From an uncultured Planctomycetales bacterium (lineage in GTDB: Bacteria > Omnitrophota > Gorgyraeia > Gygaellales > Profunditerraquicolaceae), in contig CAZOGI010000008.1 of the NCBI GenBank assembly GCA_964579435.1, forward strand, positions 2,096 through 66,095: DNA of 64,000 bases, given 5' to 3'. How positions within the stretch are numbered: the stretch's first letter is position 1; the number at the start of each line of letters is the position of its first letter. Under the pieces are notes generated by a model. That model ran no database searches. It saw nothing but the letters and a program-made list of their open reading frames with translations, and was not told the DNA's origin. This document shows, piece after piece, positions 25,864-63,420 of the stretch. The translations under genes were made by a program, and so were the position numbers.

Positions 25864-25905
25864 GACACCAGACACCCGAGACAAGGCACCAGAGACCAGG
25901 GGCAA
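25864..25905 (+). repeat. CA-rich tandem heptamer array (ACCAGAC-like units), member of a dispersed intergenic repeat family
   Basis: GACACCAGACACCCGAGACAAGGCACCAGAGACCAGGGG starts one nt after the stop codon. It has the same 7-nt periodicity as the other family members. Confidence 0.5.
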
Positions 25906-26008
25906 CAAAAAATTATAAGAAGACAGGCTATACCCCTCTTCTCATTCCACACTTCAAATCCCCCCTAAAGCTTCTGTTTTAGCGCTGCTGATCAGCACCT
26001 CATTTATT

Positions 26009-26057
26009 CTACCAAAAATTCTTATTTATTTAATTTTGGTAGTTTTTATGCTATACT
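26009..26057 (+). promoter_or_regulatory. Second copy of palindromic operator (CTACCAAAA-N16-TTTTGGTAG) with TGcTATACT extended -10, upstream of the second pseudopilin sub-operon
   Basis: 9-bp inverted repeat at 26009-26017 and 26034-26042 with a 16-nt AT-rich loop. ATGCTATACTT at 26048-26058 is identical to the string at 23947-23957. GGAGGAGG RBS, ATG at 26082. Confidence 0.45.
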
Positions 26058-26081
26058 TGTTTTGGGAGGAGGCGACGGGGT

Positions 26082-26495
26082 ATGCGCAGATACCTAAAGA
26101 AAAAGGGCACAACCCTGGTTGAACTGCTGATCGCCAGCATGATCCTGGTGGTCGCCTTCGGCGGACTCTGCAGCAGCCTGGCGGCAACGGTCTTTATAAT
26201 CGATACCGCCCGGGACGAAACACAGGCAATTACCGACCTGCGCAACATCATGGAACGCATCCGCTCGACGCCGCTCTCTAATATCGTCTCGCTGTTTCCC
26301 CATAACGTCGCAAACGGCCCCGGCAGCAACCCGTACAGCGCCATCGTCGGAGGCTTTCAGCTTACCGCGGAGGCCATCACCATATCGTACCAGGATCCCA
26401 ACAGCGATCCCCTAAAGATCTGCGCCCAAGTACAGTGGCAGGATCGCCGGGGCACGCTCAGGAGCATGCTCCTGAGTACCGCAAAAACGCGCTGA
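26082..26495 (+). CDS. Prepilin-type N-terminal domain protein (pseudopilin)
   Basis: MRRYLKKKG|TTLVELLIASMILVVAF. Confidence 0.6.
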   Translation: MRRYLKKKGTTLVELLIASMILVVAFGGLCSSLAATVFIIDTARDETQAITDLRNIMERIRSTPLSNIVSLFPHNVANGPGSNPYSAIVGGFQLTAEAITISYQDPNSDPLKICAQVQWQDRRGTLRSMLLSTAKTR

Positions 26496-26497
26496 CC

Positions 26498-27097
26498 ATG
26501 AAAAACTCACCGGTTAACAGAGATGCTCGTCGCGGGTTCTCGCTTTTCGAAACGCTCCTCGCCTGCACTCTCACCTGCATCATCGCCGCTGCCGTGTACC
26601 AGATGCAGATCGCCGGATGCACCGGCATCGAACACGGCAAAATCAGGGCGGACCTGCAGGCACAGGCGCGCAATACCCTGGCGCGGATACAGGCGGAGCT
26701 CTCGGCTGCCACGCGCGCGCAGGCAAACACTCCCCCCAACATTTCGATTCCCTCGGCCCCCGGCAACACGACGATCACCTTCTATCTGCCGACCTACACC
26801 TTTTCGGGCAACCGGATTACCGGAGTGGTCATGGATACCGACGGCGCGATAGTCTGGGACGTGAATAATCCGGTGAGCTTCGAATACGATCAGTCTAACC
26901 GTCAAATACTACGCCGCCAAGGAGCCTCTGCCAGCGTCATCGCAACGCACGTCTCAGGCGTCACCTTCACGGACAGCGTCATCGATCCGGCCCTGGCGCT
27001 GGATGAAGTCCGGCTTGAGGTACAATTAGAGATGCAGACAACCCAAGGCAGAACGGTCCAGATCAGCCTGCCCTGCCTTATCCGGCTGCGCAACTAA
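26498..27097 (+). CDS. Prepilin-type N-terminal domain protein (pseudopilin)
   Basis: MKNSPVNRDARRG|FSLFETLLACTLTCIIAAAV. The ATG lies 3 nt after the upstream stop. Confidence 0.6.
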   Translation: MKNSPVNRDARRGFSLFETLLACTLTCIIAAAVYQMQIAGCTGIEHGKIRADLQAQARNTLARIQAELSAATRAQANTPPNISIPSAPGNTTITFYLPTYTFSGNRITGVVMDTDGAIVWDVNNPVSFEYDQSNRQILRRQGASASVIATHVSGVTFTDSVIDPALALDEVRLEVQLEMQTTQGRTVQISLPCLIRLRN

Positions 27098-27112
27098 AAC
27101 AGGGAGGCACCC

Positions 27113-28747
27113 ATGCGCCCGGTCACGCGCGGACCAAACAGACGAAAAGGACAAGCCCTGATCGCGGCATACCTGGCGATAACCGCGCTGCTTGCCCTGG
27201 CGGCGACGATCTCGACGAAAGCCATCTCCGAACGCAACACCGCAGCCCATCGGCAGATGCACTCCCAGATCTTTTATCTCGCCGAAGGGGGGATGGAAGA
27301 GACCCTGGCGGCATTCGCCTCGCAGATCGCTGATTACCAGATCAGCCCGGAGACCGACACCTTCAGCTGGAACTCGACCTTCGCTCCCTTCTCCAACGCC
27401 AGCGTCCGTTCCGAAATAACGCCGATAGACTCCGCAAGCAGCATGATCAGCGAATCCGACACCAATATCCTGGTGCGCCGCTATCTCATCAACTCAACCG
27501 TCACTCATCCCGACAACCCGGCACTGACCATCACCATCCACCAGATATTCGTCCGGCGCCTCATCCCAACGTTCCAGCATTCGGTCTTCTATGACCAGGA
27601 CCTGGAGATGCTCCCCGGACCGAACATGACTCTCACCGGACGCATCCATTCAAACCAGGACATATACCTCGATTCCCATAATGCCTTTACCATCAATTCG
27701 ACGTATCTTCACTCTGCAGGCAACATCTACAACAACCGCAAAGACGACTCAAGCGTGCTGGGAGGGGATGTTTACATACGCATCAACGCAACGAGCCCAA
27801 TACAGTGGGCGGCCATGAACAACCTCGATTGCGACAACGCCAACTGGACCAGCGCCGCCCTCGCGCGCTGGAACTCAACCGTCATGAGCAGCGTCCACGG
27901 CGTGCGGCGCATCAGCGCACCATCGGTTGCCTCCGTGCAACCGGGCGGTTACTACGATACCGCGGCAAACGTCAAGATCATCGACGATAACATCTATCGG
28001 GGCGGGGTACTCCTGAGCGAAGGAACCGATTATCCCGCCGGCACCATCACCGCCAACAATACCTTCTACAATAACCGCGAAGGCCGCAGGGTGCGTATGA
28101 CTACTATCGACCTGCGCAAGCTCGCCGGCTTCAGCAGCGCCAACGCTACCGCAGCCGATTTTCCCAACAACCTGCCGTCAAACGGACTGCTCTTCGCCAG
28201 CCGCAGCAGCGTACCGACCGGAGAGCAGGCGGGGATACGGCTGGCCAACGGCTCCGAGATACACCGCAGCGGCGGCCTCACCGTCGTCACCAACGACCCC
28301 CTCTATATCCAAGGGGATTACAACACCGTCAATGAGAAACCCACCAGCGTCATCTGCGATGCGGTCAACCTCCTCTCCAACTCCTGGAGCGACACCGCAA
28401 GCACCCTGACCCTGACCAGCCGTATCCCCTCGGCAACCAGCGTCATCTGTGCCTTTATCGCCGGAGTCGACGAAACGACTTCCGGCCAATATAACGGGGG
28501 ACTGGAGAATTACCCTCGCCTGCACGAAAAATGGGACAACCGGCAGTTGGCGATCAAAGGTTCTTTCGTCAGCCTGTGGGAAAGCCAGGTCGCAACCGGC
28601 AGCTGGGTCTATGGCGGCACCCAGTATACCGCACCGACGCGAAGCTGGCAGTATAATACCGCCTTCAACAACCCCGCCAATCTTCCGCCGTTCACCCCCT
28701 GGGCGGTGGAGACCCGACGCATCGCCTGGTGGGTAGAGAATTCTTAA
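27113..28747 (+). CDS. Large PilX_N-like pilus-associated protein (544 aa), N/T/S-rich; candidate tip/adhesin component
   Basis: N-terminal hydrophobic helix (ALIAAYLAITALLALAATI) is followed by QIFYLAEGGMEETLA, the PilX_N AEAGL-like motif. The remainder is rich in N, T and S with many N-x-T/S sequons. Confidence 0.5.
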   Translation: MRPVTRGPNRRKGQALIAAYLAITALLALAATISTKAISERNTAAHRQMHSQIFYLAEGGMEETLAAFASQIADYQISPETDTFSWNSTFAPFSNASVRSEITPIDSASSMISESDTNILVRRYLINSTVTHPDNPALTITIHQIFVRRLIPTFQHSVFYDQDLEMLPGPNMTLTGRIHSNQDIYLDSHNAFTINSTYLHSAGNIYNNRKDDSSVLGGDVYIRINATSPIQWAAMNNLDCDNANWTSAALARWNSTVMSSVHGVRRISAPSVASVQPGGYYDTAANVKIIDDNIYRGGVLLSEGTDYPAGTITANNTFYNNREGRRVRMTTIDLRKLAGFSSANATAADFPNNLPSNGLLFASRSSVPTGEQAGIRLANGSEIHRSGGLTVVTNDPLYIQGDYNTVNEKPTSVICDAVNLLSNSWSDTASTLTLTSRIPSATSVICAFIAGVDETTSGQYNGGLENYPRLHEKWDNRQLAIKGSFVSLWESQVATGSWVYGGTQYTAPTRSWQYNTAFNNPANLPPFTPWAVETRRIAWWVENS

Positions 28748-28870
28748 GCGCACGGGAGCACCAGGAACAAGAACACAAGAATGAAGCAATCAGACAGTGC
28801 GCTCGAACAGCAAGCGCGACACCCGCGCCATTCTGATTAACGCGGAGTGTTTGTGCCCCTGTGCACCGGT
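28748..28870 (+). repeat. Intergenic CA-rich repeat (GCACCAGGAACAAGAACACAAG) plus degenerate inverted copy (GTGTTTGTGCCCCTGTGCACC)
   Basis: Forward heptamer-like array at 28748-28786 and an inverted degenerate copy at 28845-28870. It belongs to the same family as the 32456, 38611 and 62694 loci. Confidence 0.4.
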
Positions 28871-28891
28871 ACGTTTGTAACCACGCACCCC

Positions 28892-28920
28892 TTGCGCTTG
28901 CCTGTCTTTTCCTCTATAAT
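28892..28920 (+). promoter_or_regulatory. Sigma70-like promoter TTGCGC-17-TATAAT; ATG of marC at predicted +1 (leaderless)
   Basis: TATAAT at 28915-28920, and the ATG at 28928 lies 7 nt downstream. The -35 is TTGCGC at 28892-97. Confidence 0.4.
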
Positions 28921-28927
28921 AATCGTC

Positions 28928-29518
28928 ATGCTTAAACTCCTTGAACCTTATATAGTAGCGTTCATCCCGCTCTTTGTGGCGGTCGATGCCTTCGGCAATA
29001 TACCGCTTTATATCTCGCTGGTGGAGCATCTGGGCAAAAAACAGCGCGAGCGGATCGTCTCGGTCGCCGTCTCTACCGCCACGGTCGTCGCGCTCCTGTT
29101 CGTCTTCATCGGCAAAGCGGTCTTCCATCTCATCGGGATATCCATCTCCGACTTCCAGATCGCCGGAGGCGCCCTGCTCTTCGTCATCGCCATGCGCCTG
29201 CTCCTTCCCGGATCGGCAAAGGCGATCTATGTCGCCGACAACAGCAAGGATATCGGCGTATTCCCCCTGGGCACCCCGCTCATCACCGGACCGGCGGTCC
29301 TGACCACCACGCTGATGATGCTGGACTCCCACGGCAAAGCGGCAACCCTCATCTCGCTGCTGCTGAACATGCTCATCGTCTGGGTGACGCTGGCCAAAGC
29401 GGAATTTTTTCTGCGGGTCATGGGGGAGAACGGCGCCCGCGCGTTCGCCAAGATCATGTACGTGCTTTTGGCGGCGATCGGGGTGATGATGATCCGCCGC
29501 GGCATCGGCGCGCCATGA
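28928..29518 (+). CDS. MarC family integral membrane protein (UPF0056)
   Basis: Six-TM small membrane protein with FIPLFVAVDAFGNIPLYISL, the MarC-family N-terminal motif. Confidence 0.7.
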   Translation: MLKLLEPYIVAFIPLFVAVDAFGNIPLYISLVEHLGKKQRERIVSVAVSTATVVALLFVFIGKAVFHLIGISISDFQIAGGALLFVIAMRLLLPGSAKAIYVADNSKDIGVFPLGTPLITGPAVLTTTLMMLDSHGKAATLISLLLNMLIVWVTLAKAEFFLRVMGENGARAFAKIMYVLLAAIGVMMIRRGIGAP

Positions 29519-31205: not shown

Positions 31206-31292
31206 AAAAACCGATTTGTGGTAAGATATTTTTTTTGTACGGCAGCCGCCGGTCGGGGGCTGCGGATAACCACCATCCGTAAGGAGGCAGGA

Positions 31293-32444: not shown

Positions 32445-32455
32445 GTCACGACCTC

Positions 32456-32506
32456 CAAACACACAAGACACAAGACACCAGACACAAGACACATGACACA
32501 AGAAAA
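32456..32506 (+). repeat. CA-rich tandem heptamer array (ACAAGAC ACAAGAC ACCAGAC ACAAGAC ACATGAC ACAAG)
   Basis: About six clean 7-nt units sit 12 nt after the acyl-CoA dehydrogenase stop and 57 nt before etfB. Both flanking genes are on the same strand. Confidence 0.5.
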
Positions 32507-32562
32507 GCGCATCGAACGCTGAGAGACGAAAACAGGAGAAGACGCGTCCCTCCCTCAATCCC

Positions 32563-34938: not shown

Positions 34939-35111
34939 GAATCCTCGGAAACGCCACGCTCCTTTTCAGTAAAATATCCATAACTGTCTGGAAAATTTAT
35001 AATTACGTTAATCTCAATCTTCATTCTTTAGCACTGTTTCTCAATCATATGTCAAGAAATGTAAAGATTCTCCTTGACAAATCGTTTCCCTTTGGTACAA
35101 TTGCAGTTAAG

Positions 35112-35306
35112 ATGAACATGAAAGAACCTTCCGCTGCAGGCCTTCTCACCATCGACGAGCTTTCGCTCTACCTGAAAGTCACCCGCAGGACCATTTACGA
35201 CTGGCTCAAACACAATAAGATCCCGGCGATCAAACTCGTCGGACAGTGGCGTTTCCGCAAAGAAACCATCGACGCCTGGATCGAGCACAACTCAAAAGCG
35301 CAATGA
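35112..35306 (+). CDS. Helix-turn-helix DNA-binding protein, excisionase/MerR-like HTH_17 family (64 aa)
   Basis: LLTIDELSLYLKVTRRTIYDWLKHNKIPAIKLVGQWRF. Preferred start is the ATG at 35112 after a TTGACA-15-TACAAT promoter at 35075-35101. The track's 35049 start lies inside an AT-rich putative regulatory region. Confidence 0.5.
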   Translation: MNMKEPSAAGLLTIDELSLYLKVTRRTIYDWLKHNKIPAIKLVGQWRFRKETIDAWIEHNSKAQ

Positions 35307-38597: not shown

Positions 38598-38610
38598 AGC
38601 AGATACAGGA

Positions 38611-38674
38611 AACAGGGCACCAGGAACAAGGAGTGACCGGTAACTCTTTGTCTCTGGTGCCCTGTCTTTTTGTT
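38611..38674. terminator. Long imperfect hairpin (22-bp arms, 10-nt loop containing ACCGGT) followed by T-rich tract, between convergent smc and GGDEF genes; built from CA-rich repeat-family sequence
   Basis: Left arm ACAGGGCACCAGGAACAAGGAG (38612-33), loop TGACCGGTAA, right arm CTCTTTGTCTCTGGTGCCCTGT (38644-65). 19 of 22 positions pair, and CTTTTTGTT follows. Confidence 0.45.
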
Positions 38675-38680
38675 GCCTGT

Positions 38681-39898
38681 TTAAGAATTAAAGGCGAGCA
38701 GACAGCAGGTGGTATTCTTGCCGCTGTGTTTGGCTTGATAGAGCGTTTTATCGGCAAAACTGAGGAGTTCCGCAGGGGTTTTGCCGTCCTCAGGATAAGT
38801 ACTCACCCCCAGGCTGGCGGTCAGTTTCTGATGCGGCATGATCTCTTCGTGGATAAACGCATGCTTGCCGATATCCTCCCGCAGGCGCTCCGCGATCAGG
38901 AATGCCTCGCGCTTGTCGGTCTGCGGCAGGATGACCATGAATTCCTCGCCGCCGTAGCGGGAGACGAAATCCATCTTGCGGGAATGGCTCTTGAGCAACT
39001 GGGCCAGGTCTTTGAGGATCGTATCGCCGGCCTGATGCCCGAACGTGTCGTTATACACCTTAAAATCGTCTATATCCAGCGCGATCAGGCTGACCGGGAC
39101 TTTAACCGCCTTTGCCTTCTCCAGCTCCTCCTGCAGGGTAAACTGGAAATAGCCGTGGTTCCACAGCCCGGTGAGGGAATCCTGGTGGGTGCGGATAACC
39201 GTTTTTTCGTACAGATGCGAATTCTCGATCGCCAGGCCCGCCTGGTTGGCGAGCATGATGAGCATGCGCAGGTCGCTGTTGGTGATCGATTTTTTGGTGA
39301 TGAAGTTGTCGGCCAAAATGATGCCGTTGACCTTGTCCTTGGCTTTCAGCGGCACGACCGCCAGCTCCTCGGCCTTGAGCAGCTGGATGACCGGGTCGTT
39401 GGCGTAACGGCCGATCGCCTCTTTATTCAGATGCAGCGGCATCCCGTCCAGCACGCAAAGGGACAGGAGGCTCTCGGCGTTCTCCTTCAGGGAAACCTTT
39501 ACGTGCTTGACCTGACGGTTGAAAGAGGTCTCGGGCGCTCCGTTCAGAGCCTTGTAGGCGCCGATAAGCTCCTCGAGGCTTTTGCGCTCCTGCTCGATCT
39601 GCTTCCAGATGCGGTTCGCCTCATCGCCGCTTTCGGGACCGATAGCCATCTTGCCTTCGATCAAACCTTCTTTTTCGTTAACCAAAAAGAGGATGGAGCG
39701 GTTGAAGCCGAGGCCGATGTGTGCGGTGACGCCGGTGAGGATGATATAGAGGATTTCATCGAGCTTGAGGGTGGTACGCATGGCGTTGGAGACCTCGTAG
39801 AGAACCGTCAACTCGGTCTTCGTGCGCTCAAGCTCTGCTTTTATCCGATCCAGCTCCTGCTTGAACTCTTCAGGAACAGGGTGTTTTTCGATGGTCAT
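38681..39898 (-). CDS. Diguanylate cyclase (GGDEF) with N-terminal GAF-like sensory domain(s)
   Basis: The minus-strand ORF translation contains RYGGEEFMVILPQTDKREA (the GGEEF active site), the inhibitory-site-like LDIDDFKVYND, and upstream GAF-like segments. Confidence 0.8.
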   Translation of the reverse strand: MTIEKHPVPEEFKQELDRIKAELERTKTELTVLYEVSNAMRTTLKLDEILYIILTGVTAHIGLGFNRSILFLVNEKEGLIEGKMAIGPESGDEANRIWKQIEQERKSLEELIGAYKALNGAPETSFNRQVKHVKVSLKENAESLLSLCVLDGMPLHLNKEAIGRYANDPVIQLLKAEELAVVPLKAKDKVNGIILADNFITKKSITNSDLRMLIMLANQAGLAIENSHLYEKTVIRTHQDSLTGLWNHGYFQFTLQEELEKAKAVKVPVSLIALDIDDFKVYNDTFGHQAGDTILKDLAQLLKSHSRKMDFVSRYGGEEFMVILPQTDKREAFLIAERLREDIGKHAFIHEEIMPHQKLTASLGVSTYPEDGKTPAELLSFADKTLYQAKHSGKNTTCCLLAFNS

Positions 39899-40074: not shown

Positions 40075-41862
40075 ATGAACACCCTACGGTTTCTGCGCCG
40101 CGGCCTAATTTACTGCCTCTTCCTGCTCCTGGCGATCACCGCCGCAGACTTTATCCTCTACCGCATCTACTGTTTTCGCAACAAAATCCCTCCCCGTTTC
40201 ACCCCCTGCATCGGCCTCTCCGATCTTTCCCGGCTTACCGGCCCCCTCAGCAGGGATAAGAAGAGCGGGTACTGGAATGCATCTTTCCGCAAAGATCCGG
40301 GGATCATCCGAATCGGTTGTTTCGGGGATTCCTTTACGCAAGGAGACGAGGTCAATCAGACCCTCGACTACCCGTCTCTCCTGCAAAACCTCCTGGACCA
40401 ACGAGGATTGAGCCGCGTGCAGATACTCAATTTCGGCAATAGCTGGCACGGTTTCCATCAAGCCTACCTCGTATGGAAAGAGCTTGCCGCAGACTACCAG
40501 CTCGACGGGGTATTGATCGGCCCCCGGGGCTTTTGGCAGGAGCGCGACTCACGATTCAATCATGCCTTCCCGGAACTGCCGCTTCCCGGGACAACCGCCT
40601 CGCTCCATGCCCGCTTTATCCTGGACAAACAGGGGGTGCGCCTGCTTTCGCCTGTCGGAAAAAACGTCTGCCAGCTCTCCCGGGCCTACGTGCGGTTCAT
40701 CCCCGCCTGGAGATACCTGCGCTACGACACCGGCGAACCGTTTTTCCTCAAAGCGCCGATCGAGCTCTTTACCCCGAACAGGTCCCTGCGCAACGGGAAC
40801 CCTTTTTATTACCGCAAAGACATCCCGCAGGAGATGGGGCTGATCTACCGCGCGCTCCTCAACGATATCGCGCAGCGCACCCCCTGGGTATTCCTGGGCA
40901 ATTACGAACGGCAGATACTGGAAACCGCCAAAACGATCCGGCGGGACAATTTTTCCTGCTCGTTGCTTTTGCGGCCGCACCATTTCCCGTATCAAGCCTT
41001 CGGCGGTCACAACGGCCCCCTCGGGAACCTGGTTTTGGCGCAGCAGATGCTGAAAGTCCTGTTGGGCGAAACCGAATGCACCTTGACCATCCTCAAGACC
41101 GAAAACCTTGCCGGCGCCGCCGGGACCCCTGCGATGCCGCAGCGTCCTGAACCGCTCGGCTATTATGACGAAGCGGCTTTCCTGATCCGCGGACAGCGTA
41201 TCGGCTCGCTCTTTCGCCGGCACCCGATCTGGCCGGTCTATTGCTGCGGGCCCGAATGCGCCCCGATACAAAAACCGCTCCAGGACATACACGCGCTTCT
41301 CTACCTGCGCCGGGAGGGGCAAAGCTCCCTTCTCGACGATGATTTCATCAACATACCTTTTGACCTTCGGGAAGGGATGCCGGCGCTCATCCGCACCCGC
41401 GCGCAGGGGCGCTGGCAGGACCGCCCGCTGGGCACCGTCTCGCTCCTGCATCCGGGCAGCAACATCGGCAGCATCGAGCCGCCGCAGGAGCTGCCGACCG
41501 TCTCTTTCTCCTGCGAAGCGGCAGGGCTGCGCGCGGCACACAAGGCCTGGCGCGTCAAAAACAAGGAGAGCGCCCTTTTGCTCATCGACGGCAAAGTGGT
41601 CGCGTACGGAAGAGTCGACACCCGCTCAATCACGTTCTTCGTGCCGCAGGAGCAGATGGTGATCGCGCGCGCCAGCGGCGTCGATTTACCGGATATCGAT
41701 TCGTTCCCCGAGGAAGGAACGATCGAACTGGCGCTGCGCAAGGGGAAAGAGGCCGGGCACGAATTCTCCTGCGCGCGCTGGCGAAAGACGAAGGTCACCG
41801 TTTCGCTGGAGCCGCCGGGGAGGAGATTGATCAAAAACAGTGAACCCTCGTGCGCTCGATAA
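40075..41862 (+). CDS. Hypothetical N-terminally membrane-anchored protein with SGNH/GDSL-hydrolase-like block I motif
   Basis: N-terminal TM helix (LIYCLFLLLAITAADFILY). IRIGCFGDSFTQGDE resembles the GDS(L) block I of SGNH hydrolases. No other confident motifs were seen in the remaining 400 aa. Confidence 0.4.
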   Translation: MNTLRFLRRGLIYCLFLLLAITAADFILYRIYCFRNKIPPRFTPCIGLSDLSRLTGPLSRDKKSGYWNASFRKDPGIIRIGCFGDSFTQGDEVNQTLDYPSLLQNLLDQRGLSRVQILNFGNSWHGFHQAYLVWKELAADYQLDGVLIGPRGFWQERDSRFNHAFPELPLPGTTASLHARFILDKQGVRLLSPVGKNVCQLSRAYVRFIPAWRYLRYDTGEPFFLKAPIELFTPNRSLRNGNPFYYRKDIPQEMGLIYRALLNDIAQRTPWVFLGNYERQILETAKTIRRDNFSCSLLLRPHHFPYQAFGGHNGPLGNLVLAQQMLKVLLGETECTLTILKTENLAGAAGTPAMPQRPEPLGYYDEAAFLIRGQRIGSLFRRHPIWPVYCCGPECAPIQKPLQDIHALLYLRREGQSSLLDDDFINIPFDLREGMPALIRTRAQGRWQDRPLGTVSLLHPGSNIGSIEPPQELPTVSFSCEAAGLRAAHKAWRVKNKESALLLIDGKVVAYGRVDTRSITFFVPQEQMVIARASGVDLPDIDSFPEEGTIELALRKGKEAGHEFSCARWRKTKVTVSLEPPGRRLIKNSEPSCAR

Positions 41863-47180: not shown

Positions 47181-47984
47181 TTGACAATGAACCCCGACCG
47201 AGCGACCGGCGCTCCCGAGGCATCCCGGCACAGAGGCGTCTCGCTCTTCATCCCCGTCTATAACGCCGCGCACCTGCTCAACGACACCGTGCAGGCATGC
47301 GCCGCCTCCCTCGCCGGACTTGGGGAGGCCTGTGAGATCGTCATTGTAGACGACAATTCAACCGACGCGTCGCGTCAGCGGGCGCGTCTGCTCCAGGACC
47401 AATACCGGCACACGGGTATCCCGCTGCGTTGCCTCTCCTATACCCTTGGCCCGACCCGCCGGGAGAATTTGGCGCAATCGCTGCGGCTGGCGCGCCACGA
47501 AACGATCGGTTTCCTGGACGCCGATCGTTCCTGCGAAGCCTCTTTTCTGGTGAAGGCGATCCGGCTGCTTGAGACGGAACGCTGGGATATCGTCGTCGGA
47601 AGCCGTTATATCCCCGGCTCGACGCTCAAACGCCGCAAGGCACGGCGGATCATGAGCTTCTTTTACAACGCCACGGTCAGGCTGGTTTTCAAGAGCCGGA
47701 TACGGGACCACCAGTGCGGGCTGAAGGTATTCGATAAGCGCACCGTCATGCCCGTCATCGAAGAGATGGGCTTCGACGAAACCCTCACCCGGGGATGGTT
47801 CTGGGACGCGGAGCTCCTGATCCGCGCCCAGCGCAAGGGACTGACGATAAAAGAGATGCCTGTTGATTGGACGTATGCGGACACCAGCACCTTCGAGCTG
47901 AAACGCGAGCTGCGGTGCCTGAAGGCGATCCTGCGCCTATGGCGCACCCTGCGCAGCGCCAAAATTCCGGAGCCGTCTTGCTGA
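47181..47984 (+). CDS. Glycosyltransferase family 2, polyprenol-phosphate sugar transferase-like (DPM/GtrB-type)
   Basis: SLFIPVYNAA...IVIVDDNSTDAS...FLDADRS form the GT-A DxD pattern. GSRY...QCGLKVFDKR resembles GtrB/DPM1-type enzymes. Confidence 0.7.
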   Translation: MTMNPDRATGAPEASRHRGVSLFIPVYNAAHLLNDTVQACAASLAGLGEACEIVIVDDNSTDASRQRARLLQDQYRHTGIPLRCLSYTLGPTRRENLAQSLRLARHETIGFLDADRSCEASFLVKAIRLLETERWDIVVGSRYIPGSTLKRRKARRIMSFFYNATVRLVFKSRIRDHQCGLKVFDKRTVMPVIEEMGFDETLTRGWFWDAELLIRAQRKGLTIKEMPVDWTYADTSTFELKRELRCLKAILRLWRTLRSAKIPEPSC

Positions 47985-49012
47985 AATCACCCCTGTACCG
48001 TCTCCTCGCCGTTCTCCTGGGCGCGCTCCTGCCCTTGCTGCTCTTTGAGGCCTATATGAGCCTGGCGCTGCGCTTTCCCGTCCTGTGCACGAGAGCGACG
48101 CTGAAGTTTGCCGGATATATCTATTATTGGGGGTACCGGGAAGAGATCCAATTCAAACCCGAATGCGCCCGATACGATCCCGAACTCACCTATACGCTCA
48201 AGCCGGGGGCCTGCTCCTTTAAAGGGTCGGAGTTCGAAACCACCGTAGCGGTCAACAGCGCCGGCCTGCGCGACGACGAAAATTCCCTCGTCAAGCCGGA
48301 TATCATCGTGCTGGGCGACTCGATAGCGATGGGCTGGGGGGTAGACCAGGACGAAACCTATGCGCAGCTGATCGAAAAAAACGGCACGATGAAAGTCCTC
48401 AATGCCGGGATCGCATCGTACGGCACGGTACGGGAAATGCGCCTGCTCGATCGGCTCGATACATCGAACCTGAAATACCTCCTCATCCACTATATGTGGA
48501 ACGACGGCCGGGAGAACAAGGCATTCGCCATGAACCGGAACTCCCTCACTATCAGCAGCCAAGACGAATACCTGCGCGTGCGATCGCTCCACTTCCGCCG
48601 CAGGCGATACTTCCCCTTCAAATACACGCTCCTGAGTTTGTATTATCCGATACGCGGGATCAAAGCGCGGATACACCAAAAACTCAACGGCGCGCCGCAG
48701 CGCCCGGCAGAACAGGATGAATCCCCGTCGAGCGAAGCGCGATTGTTCCTCAATGCGCTGCTGCATGCCTCACGGACCGATCTGACGGGAGTCAGGGTAG
48801 CGGTCATTTCCCATGAAGAATATTTTTTGACGGCGCTCAAAGAAGAGCTGGCCACCGGAGACTATCCCGATCATATCAGGGAGATGACCATTATCCCCAT
48901 CCACGCGGCGTTAACGGGCAAAACTCAATTCTTTCTGGATGACCACCTCCGGGCCGAAGGGCACCGGATAATCGCCGCACAGATACACAAAACCCTCCCC
49001 CAAACCCGATGA
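47978..49012 (+). CDS. SGNH/GDSL hydrolase family protein with N-terminal TM anchor
   Basis: TM helix (LLAVLLGALLPLLLF), block I (IIVLGDSIAMGWG), block III-like (LNAGIASYGT). The start is uncertain: TTG at 47978 with GGAG 6 nt upstream, or the ATG at 47867 overlapping the upstream gene. Confidence 0.5.
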   Translation: MLKSPLYRLLAVLLGALLPLLLFEAYMSLALRFPVLCTRATLKFAGYIYYWGYREEIQFKPECARYDPELTYTLKPGACSFKGSEFETTVAVNSAGLRDDENSLVKPDIIVLGDSIAMGWGVDQDETYAQLIEKNGTMKVLNAGIASYGTVREMRLLDRLDTSNLKYLLIHYMWNDGRENKAFAMNRNSLTISSQDEYLRVRSLHFRRRRYFPFKYTLLSLYYPIRGIKARIHQKLNGAPQRPAEQDESPSSEARLFLNALLHASRTDLTGVRVAVISHEEYFLTALKEELATGDYPDHIREMTIIPIHAALTGKTQFFLDDHLRAEGHRIIAAQIHKTLPQTR

Positions 49013-51844: not shown

Positions 51845-51883
51845 ACTGTCCTTGTGTCCTGTGTCTTGTGTCTTTGTAATACC
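51845..51883 (-). repeat. CA-rich heptamer repeat array in reverse orientation (GTCTTGT-type on + strand)
   Basis: The + strand reads CTGTCCTTGTGTCCTGTGTCTTGTGTCTTTGT, which is the reverse complement of ACAAAGACACAAGACACAGGACACAAGGACAG. Confidence 0.45.
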
Positions 51884-56002: not shown

Positions 56003-56055
56003 ACCCGCACCAAGCGAGCACCACTTCCCGCCCGCATCCCTTGTAGTCTGGACCG

Positions 56056-57117: not shown

Positions 57118-57121
57118 AACC

Positions 57122-59619: not shown

Positions 59620-59621
59620 CT

Positions 59622-60146
59622 ATGCGCCGATTACCATGGGCGATCGCCGGTTTCGCTGCGCTGACCCTTACCTGTTCGAGGGCACACGGGCAGGAACGTT
59701 CGAACCTGGAGTTGCTCAACAATACCACGAAGCATGACGGACAAAACCTGATATGCAGAGGAGAAGTAATAGGAGATATTATGCGGCGCGGTGACCACGC
59801 CTGGATACACCTCAATGACGGGACAGCAACGATCGGCATATGGGCGGCAGCCGATGATGTCCGGTCAATAGCCACAACCGGTAGTTACGGGAGGAGAGGA
59901 GACACCGTTGAGATAAACGGAACGCTCCACCGCAGCTGCCCCGAACACGCAGGAGATCTCGATATACACGCTCAGAGCCTCATAGTCCTGAGCCCCGGCT
60001 CGACTCTTGCCACCTCGGTCAGCGTGAAAAAGCGTTTCGCAGGTACCGTTTCTTTCTTCCTCGTCCTTGTATCCTACGCGCTCAAACGCATGCTTCGGCG
60101 AACCGGCTCCGGGCATACGCCCTCTGCCAACCGGCAGCCGCGGTAA
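59622..60146 (+). CDS. Hypothetical exported protein with C-terminal hydrophobic anchor
   Basis: Signal peptide (AIAGFAALTLTCSRAHG) and C-terminal TM (VSFFLVLVSYAL). No recognizable domain. Confidence 0.35.
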   Translation: MRRLPWAIAGFAALTLTCSRAHGQERSNLELLNNTTKHDGQNLICRGEVIGDIMRRGDHAWIHLNDGTATIGIWAAADDVRSIATTGSYGRRGDTVEINGTLHRSCPEHAGDLDIHAQSLIVLSPGSTLATSVSVKKRFAGTVSFFLVLVSYALKRMLRRTGSGHTPSANRQPR

Positions 60147-60168
60147 TTATTCCCCGCCCAGTTTACGG

Positions 60169-60197
60169 TTGACACCGCCGGTTTTCGGTGTTATATT
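60169..60197 (+). promoter_or_regulatory. Sigma70-like promoter TTGACA-17-TATATT upstream of rpsU
   Basis: TTGACA 60169-74 and TATATT 60192-97, followed by a 5' UTR of about 70 nt with an AAAGGAG RBS at 60253-59. Confidence 0.5.
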
Positions 60198-60268
60198 TTA
60201 ACCCTGCGCTTGCAGTACCCATCACCGCTTCCGCTTCCATTTTTAGCGCATGAAAGGAGTTGATCACC

Positions 60269-60427
60269 GTGCCGCACATAGAAGTCAAACGTGACGAGCC
60301 ATTCGAGGCTGCCCTGCGCCGCTTCAAGAAAAAGATCGAGCAGGAAGGCATCTTAAAAGAGGTCCGTAACCGCAAGCACTACGAAAAACCCAGCGAACGC
60401 AAGCGCAAGAAGTCGCGCCGCCGCTGA
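60269..60427 (+). CDS. rpsU: 30S ribosomal protein S21 (52 aa, GTG start)
   Basis: Translated by hand: [52 protein letters not shown]. This is the S21 consensus. It is below the 60-aa cutoff of the ORF track. The RBS lies 9 nt upstream of the GTG. Confidence 0.85.
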
Positions 60428-60444
60428 TAAGGGCACTGCGCGCA

Positions 60445-61347
60445 ATGCCCCTGGGTCTGTCTACTTCGTGGAATGCAGCGCTCCATTCCGACGGGGCGCG
60501 CATGCTCAAGGAACTCACTGAGCAAACCGGCTTTGCCTCCTTCGAGCTGAGCTTCAACCTCACCCGCTCCATGGTCGAGGGAATCGAGGCGGCTCATGCC
60601 GATGTCTTAAGCGTCCACAACTACTGTCCGATACCCGAAGGTTTCGCGCGCCCCGAGGCGCTGCCCGACTGCTACGCGCTCTCCGCGCCCGATGAAGAAC
60701 AGCGCGAGCGCGCGGTGCGCTACACGAGACGCACGATCGAAACCGCCGGCAGGCTCGGCGCGCGGGCGGTAGTCCTGCATTGCGGCAGGGTCGAGATACC
60801 CGATCGCACGCACCAGCTGATCTCGCTCTTTGAATCCGGGGAAAGTCACGGCGCGCGCTTCCGGCAGTTGCGCCAGGAGCACCTTGCGCAGCGACGTGAA
60901 TGCGCAGGCGTTTTCTTAACCCAGGCCTGCGCGAGCCTCCAGGAACTCATCCCCGCCGCCCAGAAAGAGGGGATCTTCCTGGGCATTGAAAACCGCTTCT
61001 ATATCCGGGAAATCCCTTCTTTCGAAGAGACCGCCCTGATCCTAAAGCGGTTTGCCGGCGCCCCGCTGCGCTACTGGCACGACACCGGCCACGCGTTCAT
61101 ACAGGAGCGCCTGGGGCTCAACCCCCACCTGGAGTGGCTCAAACGCTACGGTCCGTCCCTGGGCGGCATGCACCTGCACGACGTCGTCGGCCTCGACGAC
61201 CACCGTGCCCCCGGCACGGGCATAATCGATTTTGGGTCCTTTGCGCCCTTCCGGCGTAAAGACACCCTCATGATCGTCGAGACGCACCGTCCGGCCGCCG
61301 CCGCAGAGATCCGCGCAAGCCGCGCGCTGTTTGAAAAAACCGCATAA
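60445..61347 (+). CDS. Sugar phosphate isomerase/epimerase (xylose-isomerase-like TIM barrel, AP endonuclease 2 fold)
   Basis: GFASFELSF, VLSVHNYCP, AVVLHCG and LGIEN are the COG1082-type metal-binding motif series. Confidence 0.55.
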   Translation: MPLGLSTSWNAALHSDGARMLKELTEQTGFASFELSFNLTRSMVEGIEAAHADVLSVHNYCPIPEGFARPEALPDCYALSAPDEEQRERAVRYTRRTIETAGRLGARAVVLHCGRVEIPDRTHQLISLFESGESHGARFRQLRQEHLAQRRECAGVFLTQACASLQELIPAAQKEGIFLGIENRFYIREIPSFEETALILKRFAGAPLRYWHDTGHAFIQERLGLNPHLEWLKRYGPSLGGMHLHDVVGLDDHRAPGTGIIDFGSFAPFRRKDTLMIVETHRPAAAAEIRASRALFEKTA

Positions 61348-61351
61348 CACC

Positions 61352-62164
61352 ATGCACACCCCCGTGCGTAAAGCCGTCGTTGCAGGACAATTCTATCCCG
61401 CATCCGAACGGGACCTGCGCGCGACCATCAAAAGTTTCTTGGGCCGGCCGCGTACGGCCCGGGCGGTTAAAAGTTGCCTGCTGCCGCACGCGGGATACGC
61501 CTACTCCGGGGCAGTCGCCGCGCGCACCCTGCAGCGCTGCGTCATCCCGGAGACCGCGCTCCTGCTGGGGCCGAACCATACGGGCCAGGGCGCTCTCTTC
61601 AGCGTCGCCGATCGGGGATCATGGCAGACTCCGCTGGGGGAGGTCCCGATAGACGAACCCCTGGCGGCGGCGCTCCTGAAACGCTCGCGCGCGCTGCGCA
61701 GTGACAGCCTTGCCCAGCGTAACGAACACTCCCTTGAAGTCCTGGTGCCGCTGCTGCAGTATCTGCGCCCCGATATCCGGATCGTACCGGTGACGCTCTT
61801 TTCGCAACAAGCCCAGGAGCTCGCCCGCCTCGGGGAAGATATCGCCGAAGAGGTAGAGCGGCATTGCGGCGGGGTCCTGATCGTTGCCAGCTCGGATATG
61901 ACCCATTACGAGCCGCAGGAACGGGCAACCGCCAAAGACGCCGAGGCGATCAAAGCCCTCGAGGCATTGGACCCCGACGCGCTGGTCTCGGCGGTCTGCG
62001 ATCTCAAGATCACGATGTGCGGGACCGCGCCGGCCCTGGCGATGCTTTCGGCAGCCAGGAAACTCGGCGCCCGGGAAGGAAAACTGATAGAATATACGAC
62101 CAGCGGCTCCGCCACCGGCGACTACGCCAGCGTCGTCGGGTACGCGGGAATGATCTTTTATTGA
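61352..62164 (+). CDS. MEMO1-family protein (AmmeMemoRadiSam system protein B)
   Basis: VRKAVVAGQFYP, LLPHAGYAYSGAVAA and HSLEVLVP...SSDMTHY. These family motifs are clear. Confidence 0.75.
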   Translation: MHTPVRKAVVAGQFYPASERDLRATIKSFLGRPRTARAVKSCLLPHAGYAYSGAVAARTLQRCVIPETALLLGPNHTGQGALFSVADRGSWQTPLGEVPIDEPLAAALLKRSRALRSDSLAQRNEHSLEVLVPLLQYLRPDIRIVPVTLFSQQAQELARLGEDIAEEVERHCGGVLIVASSDMTHYEPQERATAKDAEAIKALEALDPDALVSAVCDLKITMCGTAPALAMLSAARKLGAREGKLIEYTTSGSATGDYASVVGYAGMIFY

Positions 62165-62181
62165 GAAAGGCGGGTTGAGTG

Positions 62182-62541
62182 ATGGACCAGGAACAGCAGA
62201 AGCACGTCGACGAAAGCTGGAAAGAGGCGGTCGCCAAGGAGAAAGAACGCCAGGGCAAAGAGGGAACCTTCGTCCCCCCGGACCCGGATTTCTCCTTCTT
62301 TGTGACGACCCTGGCCCTGCAGGCCTCGATCTCCCTGGGGGTCGTCGCCAACCCGGGGACGAACCAGAAGGAAGAGAACCTGGCCCAGGCAAAATTCATG
62401 ATCGACACCCTTTCGCTGCTGCAGGAAAAGACAAAAGGCAACCTTACCGAAGACGAAGGCAAACTCCTGGAGAATATCCTCTACGAACTGCGCATGCAAT
62501 TCATCGAGAAAAGCAAAAAAGGAGACCTGAATGCTCGATAA
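62182..62541 (+). CDS. DUF1844 domain protein
   Basis: PDPDFSFFVTTLALQASISLG matches the DUF1844 core. Confidence 0.55.
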   Translation: MDQEQQKHVDESWKEAVAKEKERQGKEGTFVPPDPDFSFFVTTLALQASISLGVVANPGTNQKEENLAQAKFMIDTLSLLQEKTKGNLTEDEGKLLENILYELRMQFIEKSKKGDLNAR

Positions 62542-62686
62542 AGAGTTGCTGGAGATACTGGCCTGCCCGGCATGCAGGGGAGACGTTGAACTGAAAGAAG
62601 ACAAAATAGTTTGCAAGAAATGCGCTAAAAAGTACCCGGTCCGCGACGGCATCCCGGTTATGCTGATCGATGAGGCACAGGAGTGA
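62531..62686 (+). CDS. Trm112-family small protein (DUF343; zinc-ribbon-like)
   Basis: Hand-translated: MLDKELLEILACPACRGDVELKEDKIVCKKCAKKYPVRDGIPVMLIDEAQE. The LLxILxCPxC...YPIxDGIPxLL motif is present. Overlaps the DUF1844 stop by 11 nt. Confidence 0.6.
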   Translation: MLDKELLEILACPACRGDVELKEDKIVCKKCAKKYPVRDGIPVMLIDEAQE

Positions 62687-62693
62687 TGCGCAT

Positions 62694-62731
62694 GGCACCA
62701 GACACCAGACACATGACACATGACACAAAAA
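62694..62731 (+). repeat. CA-rich tandem heptamer array (ACCAGAC ACCAGAC ACATGAC ACATGAC ACAA)
   Basis: Starts 8 nt after the Trm112-like stop and lies 35 nt before aroQ. Confidence 0.45.
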
Positions 62732-62765
62732 TAACTCATCCAGCGGCGGCTTGTTTTTGCCTGAG

Positions 62766-63269
62766 ATGAAAACCACTCGTCGCATCCTTATAATCCACGG
62801 CCCCAACCTGCATCTGCTGGGAACACGGGAGCCCCAGGTATACGGAAAAACCACCCTTGCCCAGATCAACCGCATGCTGCAGGCGATCGCCAAGAGACGC
62901 AAGGCCGCCCTCACCATATGCCAGTCCAACCACGAAGGCCGGATCGTCGATCTGATTACGGAGGCCCCGGGCCGCTATGCCGGACTCCTGATCAACCCTG
63001 CCGCATACACCCATACCAGCGTCGCACTCAGGGACGCAATCGCCGCCGCAGGGCTGCTGACCATCGAGGTACATCTCTCCAACATCCATGCCCGGGAAGA
63101 GTTCAGGCGCCAATCACTGATCACGCCGGTTGCCAAAGGCACGATCATGGGCTTCGGGGCGAAAAGTTACGCGCTGGGCTTAGAGACACTAATAGACCTG
63201 ATCGAACAGGCACCGGCAACAGAACAGAAGAGGTCAAAACCGCGCCGGGCGCCGTATCAGCGAAGTTAG
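62766..63269 (+). CDS. aroQ: 3-dehydroquinate dehydratase, type II
   Basis: [37 protein letters not shown] and [15 protein letters not shown] are the type II DHQase signatures. Confidence 0.85.
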
Positions 63270-63273
63270 AGAC

Positions 63274-63420
63274 TTGACACATGACACCAGTAAAAGCAAA
63301 AAAAGACTACAGATCTTTCGTAACGTTGCGTTAAAAGACGTATCCGAGCCGCCGCTGGAAGAATTACTCTTGTATCATGTGCCTTGTGTCTGGTGTCTTG
63401 TGCCCTGTGTCTTATAACAC
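63274..63420. repeat. Inverted pair of CA-rich heptamer repeats flanking a ~90-bp spacer
   Basis: Forward copy TTGACACATGACACCAG at 63274-90. The reverse copy at 63375-63420 has reverse complement GTGTTATAAGACACAGGGCACAAGACACCAGACACAAGGCACATGA. Confidence 0.45.

Follow-up and report, generated by a model that had tools for sequence, protein, structure and literature searches.

The non-coding gaps of a 64-kb stretch of DNA from a bacterium of the phylum Omnitrophota, called the window in the following, contain CA-rich arrays of tandem heptamers of the type ACAAGAC, and it has to be asked what these arrays are, how they came to lie there and whether they serve a purpose. They had been described as a dispersed intergenic family which occurs in both orientations and sometimes as inverted pairs. 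This description was confirmed by a scan with a position weight matrix (PWM), with the addition that some arrays lie in the last codons of genes. The matrix was trained on three strong arrays; the 95% level of the maxima in shuffled windows was 17.6 bits, and arrays were listed from 14 bits upwards. With the unit ACMNGRC ten arrays at seven loci were obtained in the 64-kb window, including one arm at 38645-38665(-) with 14.1 bits. Together with one degenerate locus the family comprises seven PWM-supported loci plus one, and four of these are inverted pairs with spacers of about 10, 32, 60, and 75 nt. The variants ACAAGAC, ACCAGAC, ACATGAC, ACAGGGC, ACCAGGA and others are seen in 3–7 copies per array, unit order and copy number vary between loci, and indels are found at 28750 and 51846. 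Tandem arrays were recovered at six of the seven loci of the original prediction; the seventh, 28748-28870, is riddled with indels and stays below 14 bits in phase. The regular expression suggested there for at least four units matched in the window only at 32463-32497, 62697-62724, and 63381-63408(-).

That the pattern is a chance or compositional artefact of an A+C-rich strand has a negligible probability. The plus strand does show an excess of A over T and of C over G across the whole window, which would favour such a reading, but Markov and dinucleotide-level null models yielded 0.03 arrays per window as compared to four in a strict scan (ACANGAC with one mismatch, at least three units, Markov-shuffled windows) and ten in the PWM scan. 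In addition, a test proposed in advance, whether the arrays are equally frequent inside coding regions, came out clearly within the window: coding sequence takes up 96.7% of it, yet gene interiors are free of any array. The artefact is refuted by the shuffled nulls and by this absence from gene interiors, and the heptamer family is statistically real in the window. Tandem Repeats Finder (TRF) reported period 7 at 25863, 32461, 51847, 62696, and 62708; at 63368 the period was 14.

All arrays are contained in the 3.3% of the window which is non-coding or in the 3' ends of open reading frames (the last ~19 codons). About 19% of the non-coding bases belong to arrays, which are present in 8 of 13 gaps of at least 50 nt. 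The arrays are 21–49 nt long, start 0–27 nt downstream of stop codons, and are usually separated by 9–180 nt of other sequence from the next start codon. The distance of 1–15 nt from the stop which had been given originally applies to six of seven loci, the exception being the array at 51846, for which the distance from its stop (51819) is 27 nt. A G-poor CA strand, also part of the original prediction, is a property of the best three arrays (C/G 1.9–2.5), but not of the family as a whole (0.64–2.5); the general trait is a CA strand poor in T, with 0–5 T per array. In four out of four inverted pairs the CA arm precedes the GT arm, and the sense strand is CA-rich in three out of four single arrays. 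By our own count this amounts to a CA-sense orientation at seven of eight loci (one-sided binomial p ~0.035), and the non-random orientation hints at a constraint tied to transcription or replication.

The individual loci are heterogeneous. A CA-type array at 10895..10929(+) (TCAAGGC ACCAGGC GCCTAGC ACCAGAG ACAGGAG, 18.2 bits) faces a GT-on-plus array at 10962..10989(-) (ACAAGAG ACACGGC ACACGAA ACAGGCC on the minus strand, 20.3 bits), which starts 10 nt past the stop at 10952 and is followed by a promoter-like site TTGACA-17-TATACAAT and the WbqC gene (ATG 11045). This pair, 10895-10929(+)/10962-10989(-), is outside the coordinates originally reported. The six-unit degenerate array at 25860..25901(+) (CTAAGAC ACCAGAC ACCCGAG ACAAGGC ACCAGAG ACCAGGG, 34.9 bits) begins within the TAA stop of ORF 24838..25863, has an A-run behind it, and is predicted to be unstructured (fold z -0.33). 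The weakest locus is 28750..28882, where a CA-rich arm (28750-28786) and a GT-rich arm (28846-28882) are inverted to each other (fold z -1.8); indels break the heptamer phase and keep it below the 14-bit PWM cut-off. The stop at 28747 precedes it, and a promoter-like site TTGCGC-17-TATAAT follows it close before the MarC ATG at 28929. The best array, 32456..32504(+) (ACAAGAC ACAAGAC ACCAGAC ACAAGAC ACATGAC ACAAGAA, 67.5 bits for 32463-32504), is found 12 nt past the stop of the acyl-CoA dehydrogenase gene, with 59 nt left to the ETF-beta ATG, and is also predicted to be unstructured (z +0.40). The single GT-oriented array at 51846..51880(-) (CAAAGAC ACAAGAC ACAGGAC ACAAGGA on the minus strand, 29.5 bits for 51849-51876) follows the stop of a DUF1667 gene and lies upstream of a TTGCAC-16-TACAAT promoter-like site and a STAS gene (51953).

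The remaining arrays form an inverted pair between two convergent genes and a group around aroQ. The pair at 38598..38685 consists of a CA arm (38598-38632, 24.4 bits) and a GT arm (38645-38672, 14.1 bits for 38645-38665(-)) between the SMC (stop 38597) and GGDEF (stop 38681) genes. It folds at -47 kcal/mol (z -6.36) to a hairpin of at least 27 bp, followed by CUUUUUGUUG as a U-run. By its predicted structure it is an intrinsic terminator, from which we infer terminator activity, and the predicted terminator is probably bidirectional. A stable hairpin together with a U-run occurs only at 38598-38685; the single arrays lack this combination and fold no better than shuffled sequences (z -0.33 to +1.24). 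Two pairs had been expected to form long hairpins. This proved right for 38611-38666, with the -47 kcal/mol and z -6.4 of the pair just described, while 63274-63420 alone folds weakly (z -1.4). At the Trm112-aroQ junction the segment 62690..62751(+) combines an array (GCATGGC ACCAGAC ACCAGAC ACATGAC ACATGAC ACAAAAA, 48.9 bits for 62690-62731) with the flank TAACTCATCCAGCGGCGGCT. A three-unit array at 63272..63292(+) (ACTTGAC ACATGAC ACCAGTA, 19.4 bits) lies 3 nt past the aroQ stop, and the segment 63347..63415(-), a seven-unit array (ATAAGAC ACAGGGC ACAAGAC ACCAGAC ACAAGGC ACATGAT ACAAGAG on the minus strand, 63.5 bits for 63367-63415) with the flank TCCAGCGGCGGCT, stops 6 nt short of the pepP ATG (63422). 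The stretch 63347-63407 pairs with 62691-62751 across aroQ over 61 nt with 85% complementarity, so that the two segments are the right and the left arm of an inverted duplication. The unique flank TCCAGCGGCGGCT is present in the window only at the two aroQ copies, and a 61-nt array plus unique flank was clearly copied in inverted orientation around aroQ.

The placement of arrays between co-transcribed genes, noted from the beginning, was upheld for acyl-CoA dehydrogenase/ETF-beta, Trm112/aroQ, and aroQ/pepP, and a comparison with related genomes is informative for the latter two. In one relative (L121) Trm112/aroQ and aroQ/pepP each overlap by 4 nt, and in most other relatives 0–15 nt are found at these junctions. 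In the window the gaps are 79 nt and 152 nt, respectively, both filled by arrays. As the same genes overlap or abut in the relatives, the arrays are insertions into an operon which are specific to this lineage. To the aroQ of the nearest relative the identity is 78%. Where relatives have heptamer units at the same junction these are unrelated (TAGTAAC, CTCGTAG, TACACAA, and GTGAAGA).

As originally stated, the arrays resemble neither CRISPR arrays nor REP elements, and both strands of the whole window gave no Rfam match at the gathering score. CRISPR arrays consist of repeats of 24–48 nt with unique spacers of similar length, and this identity was rejected for contiguous 7-mers without spacers. 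REP elements are single imperfect palindromes of 20–40 nt with conserved sequence which are mobilised by RAYT proteins. Like enterobacterial REP and BIME elements the arrays of the window are dispersed, intergenic, often just past stops inside operons, present in both orientations and in hairpin-capable pairs, but they are non-palindromic tandem 7-mers in variable number, and no RAYT gene is contained in the window. An identity with REP, BIME, or REPIN elements was rejected as single arrays have no stem-loop of their own and the spacing of the pairs is not fixed.

The arrays had been treated as matching nothing known, which could not be maintained, as they fit a described class of heptanucleotide repeats (PMC4692102, PMC4679880). 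They are head-to-tail 7-mers at dispersed loci with a non-coding bias near the ends of open reading frames, with heterogeneous units, variable copy number and some inverted pairs, and are thus a genome-specific heptanucleotide simple-sequence-repeat family of a class already described. For this class, 186 heterogeneous (GGGANTN)n loci, mostly of four units, non-coding and in part inverted pairs, were reported (Rehm 2015, PMC4692102). The Xanthomonas GGGAATC and Nostoc GGGGA(C/T)T families resemble that of the window in being genome-specific with heterogeneous units, (GGGANTN)n there and (ACMNGRN)n here, in having typically about four units near the ends of open reading frames in non-coding DNA with some stem-loop-capable inverted pairs, and in lying next to genes without a common function; no function was found for them (PMC4692102). 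The GGGAATC family has very many loci genome-wide, whereas the family of the window was counted in 64 kb alone. In contrast to these families the unit is A/C-rich, T-poor, and free of G-tracts, and the host belongs to the Omnitrophota. Without G-tracts in the ACAAGAC-type unit the G-quadruplex or i-motif structures on which PMC4692102 focuses are impossible.

The TAACTGA direct repeats of marine Beggiatoaceae, with 2–6 copies per set and hundreds of sets in one genome (PMC4679880), are likewise intergenic tandem heptamers, mostly in one orientation, with mutually unrelated genes downstream. They are located directly upstream of start codons and overlap the ribosome binding site, while the arrays of the window abut the upstream stop and have far more variable units. 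Heptamers were found to be the most abundant class of longer simple repeats, with polymerase slippage proposed as their origin (Mrazek 2007, as cited in PMC4679880), and long simple sequence repeats have a sporadic distribution among phyla (Mrazek, Guo and Shah 2007, as cited in PMC4679880). The heptamer excess agrees with our own counts. In 785 kb of unselected contigs period 7 was the commonest with 41 arrays; periods 6, 8, and 5 had 33, 18, and 8 arrays, respectively. In viral contigs the pattern GACACMW was found at 55 loci, scrambled heptamers at 9 and 37, and an octamer version at 8. Similar heptamer arrays with other units are common across phyla, and the GACAC core is not unique to the family of the window. 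ACMNGAC arrays of at least 22 bits were absent from the 785 kb of other contigs; six are present in the window. As far as can be gathered from citing papers, the Mrazek survey and that of the cyanobacterial STRR heptamers (Mazel et al. 1990, cited in PMC4692102) were based on near-perfect repeats. The arrays of the window are for the most part degenerate, and these would escape a search for perfect repeats.

The explanation which we favour, with a confidence somewhat above even, is that slippage gives rise to the heptamer arrays, which are then tolerated as spacers and now and then put to use as terminators. At the DNA level slipped-strand mispairing and point mutation would let arrays grow, shrink, and drift, which would account for variable copy number, variant units, and indels; heterogeneity as seen between the loci is to be expected of slippage arrays in decay. 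Segments bearing arrays would occasionally be copied elsewhere or inverted. Arrays would persist only where a compact genome tolerates extra DNA, that is, between a stop codon and the next promoter or ribosome binding site. A single CA-rich array, once transcribed, may act as an unstructured spacer which uncouples formerly overlapping genes, and two arrays head to head would fold into a hairpin, which in at least one case has possibly been taken over as intrinsic terminator. The anatomy of the arrays, their restriction to non-coding DNA, their insertion as compared to the relatives, the predicted structures, and the occurrence across phyla are firm; slippage as the generator, the neutrality of most copies, and terminator activity are what we infer. 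Slippage alone leaves unexplained how one unit family spread to at least eight loci in 64 kb, for which a dispersal mechanism or selection of the unit is needed. The family is specific to this genome and its orientation is non-random, two observations which speak against a view based on slippage only.

A functional role of the RNA or single-stranded DNA is the most serious competitor, although a rather unlikely one. The 7-nt unit would be the footprint of one copy of a single-strand-binding protein (for instance Rho, ribosomal protein S1, or a protein with a cold-shock domain), and cooperative coating would keep the inter-cistronic RNA open; past the stop it would then tune downstream translation or polarity. 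The number of nucleotide-binding subsites in Bacillus CspB is about seven. At seven of eight independent loci and, by crude gene calls, in 31 of 47 co-directional gene pairs of other phyla (9 of 10 for the unit GACACAA) the sense strand is the CA-rich one, but this bias parallels the general excess of A over T and of C over G on the plus strand and may be mutational, and the single array at 51846 as well as all promoter-proximal arms are oppositely oriented. Single arrays, predicted to be unstructured, begin 0–27 nt past stops in operons where relatives have overlapping, coupled genes, and etfB, aroQ, and pepP have no well-placed Shine-Dalgarno sequence while other genes of the window have GGAGG. 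Rut sites of Rho are typically ~60–80 nt of unstructured, C-rich, and G-poor RNA; the arrays are shorter (21–49 nt) and with C/G values of 0.64–2.5 not uniformly rut-like. Binding of S1, Csp, or CsrA has been proposed, not shown, for the TAACTGA repeats (MacGregor 2015, PMC4679880), and in Nostoc as well as in E. coli the deletion of heptamer repeats is reported to alter the expression of recO and recF reporters (Pradhan 2022). No binding protein was identified for the arrays of the window, and since this junction carries unrelated units in relatives, among them the G-rich GTGAAGA, a binder would have to be indifferent to sequence or co-evolving. The inconsistent C/G, the one opposite single array, and these unrelated units lean against a single RNA-level role. 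Less likely still is the wider form, in which the arrays are functional inter-cistronic platforms, the period reflects the footprint of a cold-shock-domain-type protein, and the lineage-specific unit co-evolves with it (TAGTAAC and TACACAA in relatives). If true, a coated array past the stop would reset translation or termination between formerly translationally coupled genes, inverted copies such as the 61-nt aroQ pair would add long-range RNA duplexes gating or processing single cistrons, and the long-noted heptamer excess in bacteria would have a mechanistic reason.

A mobile origin, with the arrays as non-autonomous miniature elements of REP/REPIN or MITE type which would be moved by a transposase from another site of the genome, is improbable. 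The family is dispersed in both orientations in intergenic DNA beside stops, like the REPs of E. coli, and the four inverted pairs, the insertions as compared to relatives, and the inverted copy of the 61-nt array plus flank fit this, but conserved ends, target-site duplications, and a constant length are missing, the order of the units and the spacing of the pairs vary along with array length, no stem-loop is predicted for single arrays, and the flank TCCAGCGGCGGCT is confined to the two aroQ copies. Among the ~65 genes of the window there is no Y1 or other transposase and no reverse transcriptase. Even less probable are double-stranded operators for a protein which binds contiguous heptads or a nucleoid-associated protein acting on nearby promoters. 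The model is taken from plasmid pSM19035, whose omega ribbon-helix-helix (RHH) repressor recognises WATCACW heptads lying contiguously ahead of promoters and is encoded next to them. Contiguous heptads, direct or inverted, are found here too, and the GT-oriented arms 10962-10989, 28846-28882, and 51846-51880 lie immediately upstream of promoter-like -35/-10 pairs, but these promoter calls are consensus matches only, and the arrays 32456 and 62690 are inside operons with no promoter nearby. An omega-type operator was rejected despite the similar arrangement, since the unit is unlike WATCACW and the gene annotation of the window places no RHH or other candidate regulator gene adjoining any array.

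Knowledge of heptanucleotide repeat families goes back to 1990 (STRR), and their dominance among longer bacterial simple repeats was, according to citing literature, shown in 2007; neither the mechanism of their spread nor their role is settled in the literature. What is known of the class is not changed by the family of the window. New are the phylum Omnitrophota, a unit which cannot form quadruplexes, and a very compact genome in which arrays take up about one fifth of the non-coding DNA of the window. The window also offers before-and-after contrasts, with genes which overlap in relatives now separated by arrays and two gene ends extended into arrays. Together with the inverted 61-nt copy and the terminator-like hairpin these contrasts make it a good test case for distinguishing slippage debris from functional elements. 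One of the two extended ends is that of aroQ, which encodes 167 amino acids as compared to 143–155 in relatives, the extra tail being array-like; likewise array-like is the tail of ORF 9423..10952, where the array 10895..10929 constitutes the last ~19 codons.

Inspection of the sequence at the seven loci of the original prediction revealed successive heptamers resembling ACAAGAC, some on the plus strand and others in complementary form, and Tandem Repeats Finder returned period 7 at 25863, 32461, 51847, 62696, and 62708 and period 14 at 63368. The regular expression originally proposed, at four or more units, matched only at 32463–32497, 62697–62724, and 63381–63408 (minus strand). When ACANGAC was searched with one mismatch and at least three units, four arrays were found in the window versus 0.03 in first-order Markov shuffles. 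A position-weight matrix was built from 17 units of three strong arrays and its scores were summed in phase; in 95% of 60 shuffled windows the best score was at most 17.6 bits. Plus-strand arrays were recovered at 32463–32504 (67.5 bits), 62690–62731 (48.9 bits), 25860–25901 (34.9 bits), 38598–38632 (24.4 bits), and 63272–63292 (19.4 bits), and minus-strand arrays at 63367–63415 (63.5 bits), 51849–51876 (29.5 bits), and 38645–38665 (14.1 bits), the last being the partner of 38598–38632. The scan added one pair absent from the first list, consisting of 10895–10929 (plus strand, 18.2 bits) and 10962–10989 (minus strand, 20.3 bits). Most of the reported loci were thereby confirmed as real heptamer arrays, but 28748–28870, in which a CA-rich and a GT-rich stretch form an inverted pair broken up by many indels, was missed by the in-phase scan. 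T is nearly absent from the CA strand (the strand reading ACAAGAC) in all arrays; the G-poor composition ascribed to them holds for the three best only, C/G ranging from 0.64 to 2.5 over the whole set. The family is real and slightly bigger than first reported, and a chance origin is refuted.

According to Pfam scans the approximately 65 ORFs of the window are ordinary chromosomal genes, nearly all on the plus strand. They include a polysaccharide synthesis cluster, pgk-tpi-secG, an oligopeptide ABC transporter, an acyl-CoA dehydrogenase with ETF beta and alpha, SMC, a GGDEF protein, a glycerol-3-phosphate dehydrogenase-like operon, STAS/anti-sigma components, Mla, a two-component system, TrkH, rpsU, Memo, DUF1844, Trm112, aroQ, and pepP; no transposase, reverse transcriptase, or RAYT was found among them. 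Non-coding sequence amounts to just 2,116 nt (3.3%) on this map, and many genes overlap by 4 nt. The plus strand has more C than G (skew about −0.08) and more A than T throughout the window, whereas leading or coding strands are usually G-rich. The arrays make up 399 nt, or 19%, of the non-coding nucleotides and occupy eight of the 13 gaps of at least 50 nt, and, as opposed to an equal frequency in coding regions, the gene interiors of the window contain no array. A start 1–15 nt past a stop codon had been proposed; the distance is 0–12 nt for all arrays except that at 51846, which begins 27 nt downstream. The remainder between array and next gene contains promoter-like or ribosome-binding sequence. 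TAA, TAG, or TGA within or adjoining the start of several arrays was noted anecdotally, and a test for arrays lying inside an open frame was too permissive (random expectation 0.9–0.99) to lend more than weak support. Several sizeable ORFs (137–595 aa) have no Pfam match (24838–25863, 26082–27097, 27113–28747, 40075–41862, and 47867–49012), those at 24.8–28.7 kb flanking the arrays at 25860 and 28750.

At two places the arrays run into the end of a gene. The last approximately 19 codons of the ORF at 9423..10952 are array sequence (10895–10952) encoded by heptamer units, the protein ending in ..IQGTRRLAPETGETTRPRS. At 167 aa, AroQ is longer than its relatives (143–155 aa), which lack its C-terminal extension of about 20 residues; the DNA of this tail, at the 3' end of aroQ (63200–63269), is array-like in look. 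The original stop codons of both genes appear to have been displaced by array insertion.

The aroQ operon also permitted a comparison with relatives. After one identical NCBI protein, the next-best matches of the AroQ protein have 70–78% identity and belong to Candidatus Omnitrophota wherever the source is named. One of them, L121 (241 kb), has the gene order of the window (rpsU, AP endonuclease, Memo, DUF1844, Trm112, aroQ, pepP, efp) with overlaps of 4 nt at both Trm112/aroQ and aroQ/pepP, and in most other relatives these junctions measure 0–15 nt. In the window they measure 79 nt and 152 nt, respectively, and both are filled with arrays, which makes the arrays insertions inside the operon, particular to the lineage of the window. 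Some relatives carry arrays of their own at the Trm112-aroQ junction, namely, TAGTAAC x5 (L130, 303–337), a CTCGTAG/CTACGAA hairpin (L135, ~370–440), TACACAA x7 (L175, 4087–4138), GTGAAGA x4 (L201, 109–134), and a GGTTCAA/TTGAACC pair (L171, ~9890–9990), with units unrelated to ACAAGAC. In L130 and L201 the stop codon of the upstream gene sits inside the array. The junction is not taken to be specially enriched, because about 5–7 of about 80 loci carry an array there, close to the four or so predicted by the overall density (41 arrays in 785 kb).

The best partner of the array at 63347–63407 is not its neighbour but 62691–62751 on the other side of aroQ, the two forming 61-nt arms that are 85% complementary. 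The likeness extends past the heptamers into the unique flank TCCAGCGGCGGCT, a 13-mer whose exact matches are confined to these two copies. The pair shows that array-bearing segments apparently undergo copying and inversion. When 62680–63430 was folded, the entire aroQ ORF was predicted to be closed off by a long-range, approximately 65-bp stem (z −5.1); the pair might act as a substrate in double-strand RNA processing or be no more than a scar of the duplication.

Single CA-rich arrays, folded as RNA, were no better than shuffles (z −0.33 to +1.24). Long hairpins had been expected from two inverted pairs. That at 38611–38666, within 38598–38685, bore this out, with a hairpin predicted at −47 kcal/mol (z −6.36) and CUUUUUGUUG after it, whereas 63274–63420 folded weakly (63270–63419, z −1.4). 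Weak folding was also predicted for the pair at 28745–28885 (z −1.8), and the pair at 10870–11010 folded the same as its shuffles (z −0.29). Located where the SMC and GGDEF genes converge, the 38598–38685 pair is in its predicted form a textbook intrinsic terminator and probably a bidirectional one. A simple terminator scanner missed it, probably because it restricts the loop size and the stem length that it counts, and found no convincing terminator at single arrays; a search for known RNA genes or RNA families found none. All four sense-oriented CA arrays (25860, 32456, 62690, and 63272) end in an A-run of 4–7, a T-run on the opposite strand. Abutting the array at 32456–32504, the minus strand of 32506–32520 has a small hairpin AGCGTTCGATGCGCT and then TTTTCTTGTGT, a terminator-like antisense site.

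The original prediction saw no match to REP or BIME elements, CRISPR arrays, or known riboswitches, but a described class does fit the arrays. Their anatomy agrees feature for feature with the genome-specific heptanucleotide repeat families of Xanthomonas, Nostoc, and Beggiatoaceae and with the data of Mrazek et al. 2007. As summarised in PMC4679880, that work found 7-nt units to be the largest class of longer simple repeats in most prokaryotic genomes rich in repeats; the proposed cause is slippage tied to the polymerase footprint. A Beggiatoaceae genome contains 169 sets of TAACTGA repeats, the majority just upstream of start codons, for which S1, Csp, or CsrA were put forward as candidate binders (PMC4679880). 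Rehm et al. 2015 described heterogeneous (GGGANTN)n loci, 186 and 183 in two Xanthomonas genomes and similar ones in Nostoc (PMC4692102). These have mostly four units, are non-coding, lie near ORF ends, and include some inverted pairs; their positions are stable across species, their lengths are variable, and a search for a function came up empty (PMC4692102). Sites with five tandem MTYCTGA heptamers are reported in the Geobacter metallireducens genome paper, and in a Nostoc preprint deletion of heptamer repeats altered reporter expression of recF and recO. The window arrays are not a new kind of element but belong to this known, still unexplained class. New for the class are the phylum, Omnitrophota, and the unit; the value of the window lies in the clear comparative evidence for insertion at operon junctions.

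Heptamer arrays as such are generic. A scan of 185,579 species genomes for GACACMW x3 gave matches of which those listed come from more than 15 bacterial phyla; among them most are near-perfect GACACCT (= CCTGACA) arrays, about one quarter are GACACAA, and the flanks often pass into other heptamers. Certain genomes appear many times among the matches listed, such as the Planctomycetota MAGs JAJRWS01 and JACPCR01, which may be very array-rich. By crude gene calls on the matches listed, 100 of 123 arrays lie outside genes, and where the flanking genes are co-directional, the CA strand is sense in 31 cases versus 16, or nine versus one for the GACACAA unit. Arrays with a GACAC core occur in viral contigs (L204–L312) besides genome contigs (L001–L120), with GACACCT dominant. 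GACACMW matched 55 loci in the viral contigs, as against nine and 37 for two scrambled heptamers and eight for an octamer sharing the core; a hexamer control (at least 119 matches) was uninformative because period 6 can be coding. In 785 kb of contigs selected by presence of aroQ only, period 7 was the commonest tandem period at three or more copies (41, as compared with 33 for period 6, 18 each for periods 8 and 9, and eight for period 5). It follows from the scan, period, and viral-contig counts that the GACAC core is not uniquely favoured. The idea of a universally conserved functional element was rejected, as most matches are perfect arrays of other units (GACACCT) and, in viral contigs, the numbers for scrambled heptamers are of comparable order. 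Outside the window, scores of at least 22 bits were limited to a single Omnitrophota locus (L031) and an ACAATAC array in L175; the ACMNGAC family is uncommon elsewhere and particular to the genome of the window.

An account at the DNA level, by which slippage-made simple-sequence repeats are retained after stop codons, mostly as spacers and in one pair as a predicted terminator, is held with slightly better than even confidence. Slipped-strand mispairing together with point mutation would create and reshape the arrays, with occasional copying or inversion, and their retention would be limited to the small post-stop zone where a compact genome tolerates extra DNA. Most copies would be unstructured spacers at best, and inverted pairs would serve as raw material for hairpins, one of them turned into the predicted terminator. 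A purely neutral account is opposed by the occurrence of one unit family at no fewer than eight loci in 64 kb and by the biased orientation: each of the four pairs has CA first and GT second, and the CA strand is sense in three of the four single arrays (7/8, one-sided p ~0.035). This bias could come from the base skew of the plus strand or from a constraint at the RNA level.

A role of the arrays in docking a single-strand-binding protein whose footprint is 7 nt, or in loading Rho, is an unlikely alternative, given that C/G is variable among the arrays, that they are short, that one single array has the opposite orientation, and that the units of the relatives are unrelated. Mobility of the REP or MITE type is quite improbable, since array length and spacing are variable, single arrays have no stem-loops, and the window contains no transposase. 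Double-stranded heptad operators are less probable still; three GT arrays do lie just upstream of promoter-like sites, but other arrays are inside operons.

Two promoter-like sites end close to a start codon, TTGCGC-17-TATAAT (28892–28931 region) 8 nt before the MarC ATG at 28929 and TTGACA-17-TATACAAT (11008–11047 region) 7 nt before the WbqC ATG at 11045; because of this spacing leaderless or near-leaderless mRNAs are suggested for both genes. A small unannotated-looking ORF of 64 aa (35112–35306) with an HTH_17 (excisionase-type) domain (Pfam E 4.5e-17) stands alone in a 425-nt gap upstream of smc and is preceded by a strong promoter-like TTGACA-16-TACAAT at 35074–35101.
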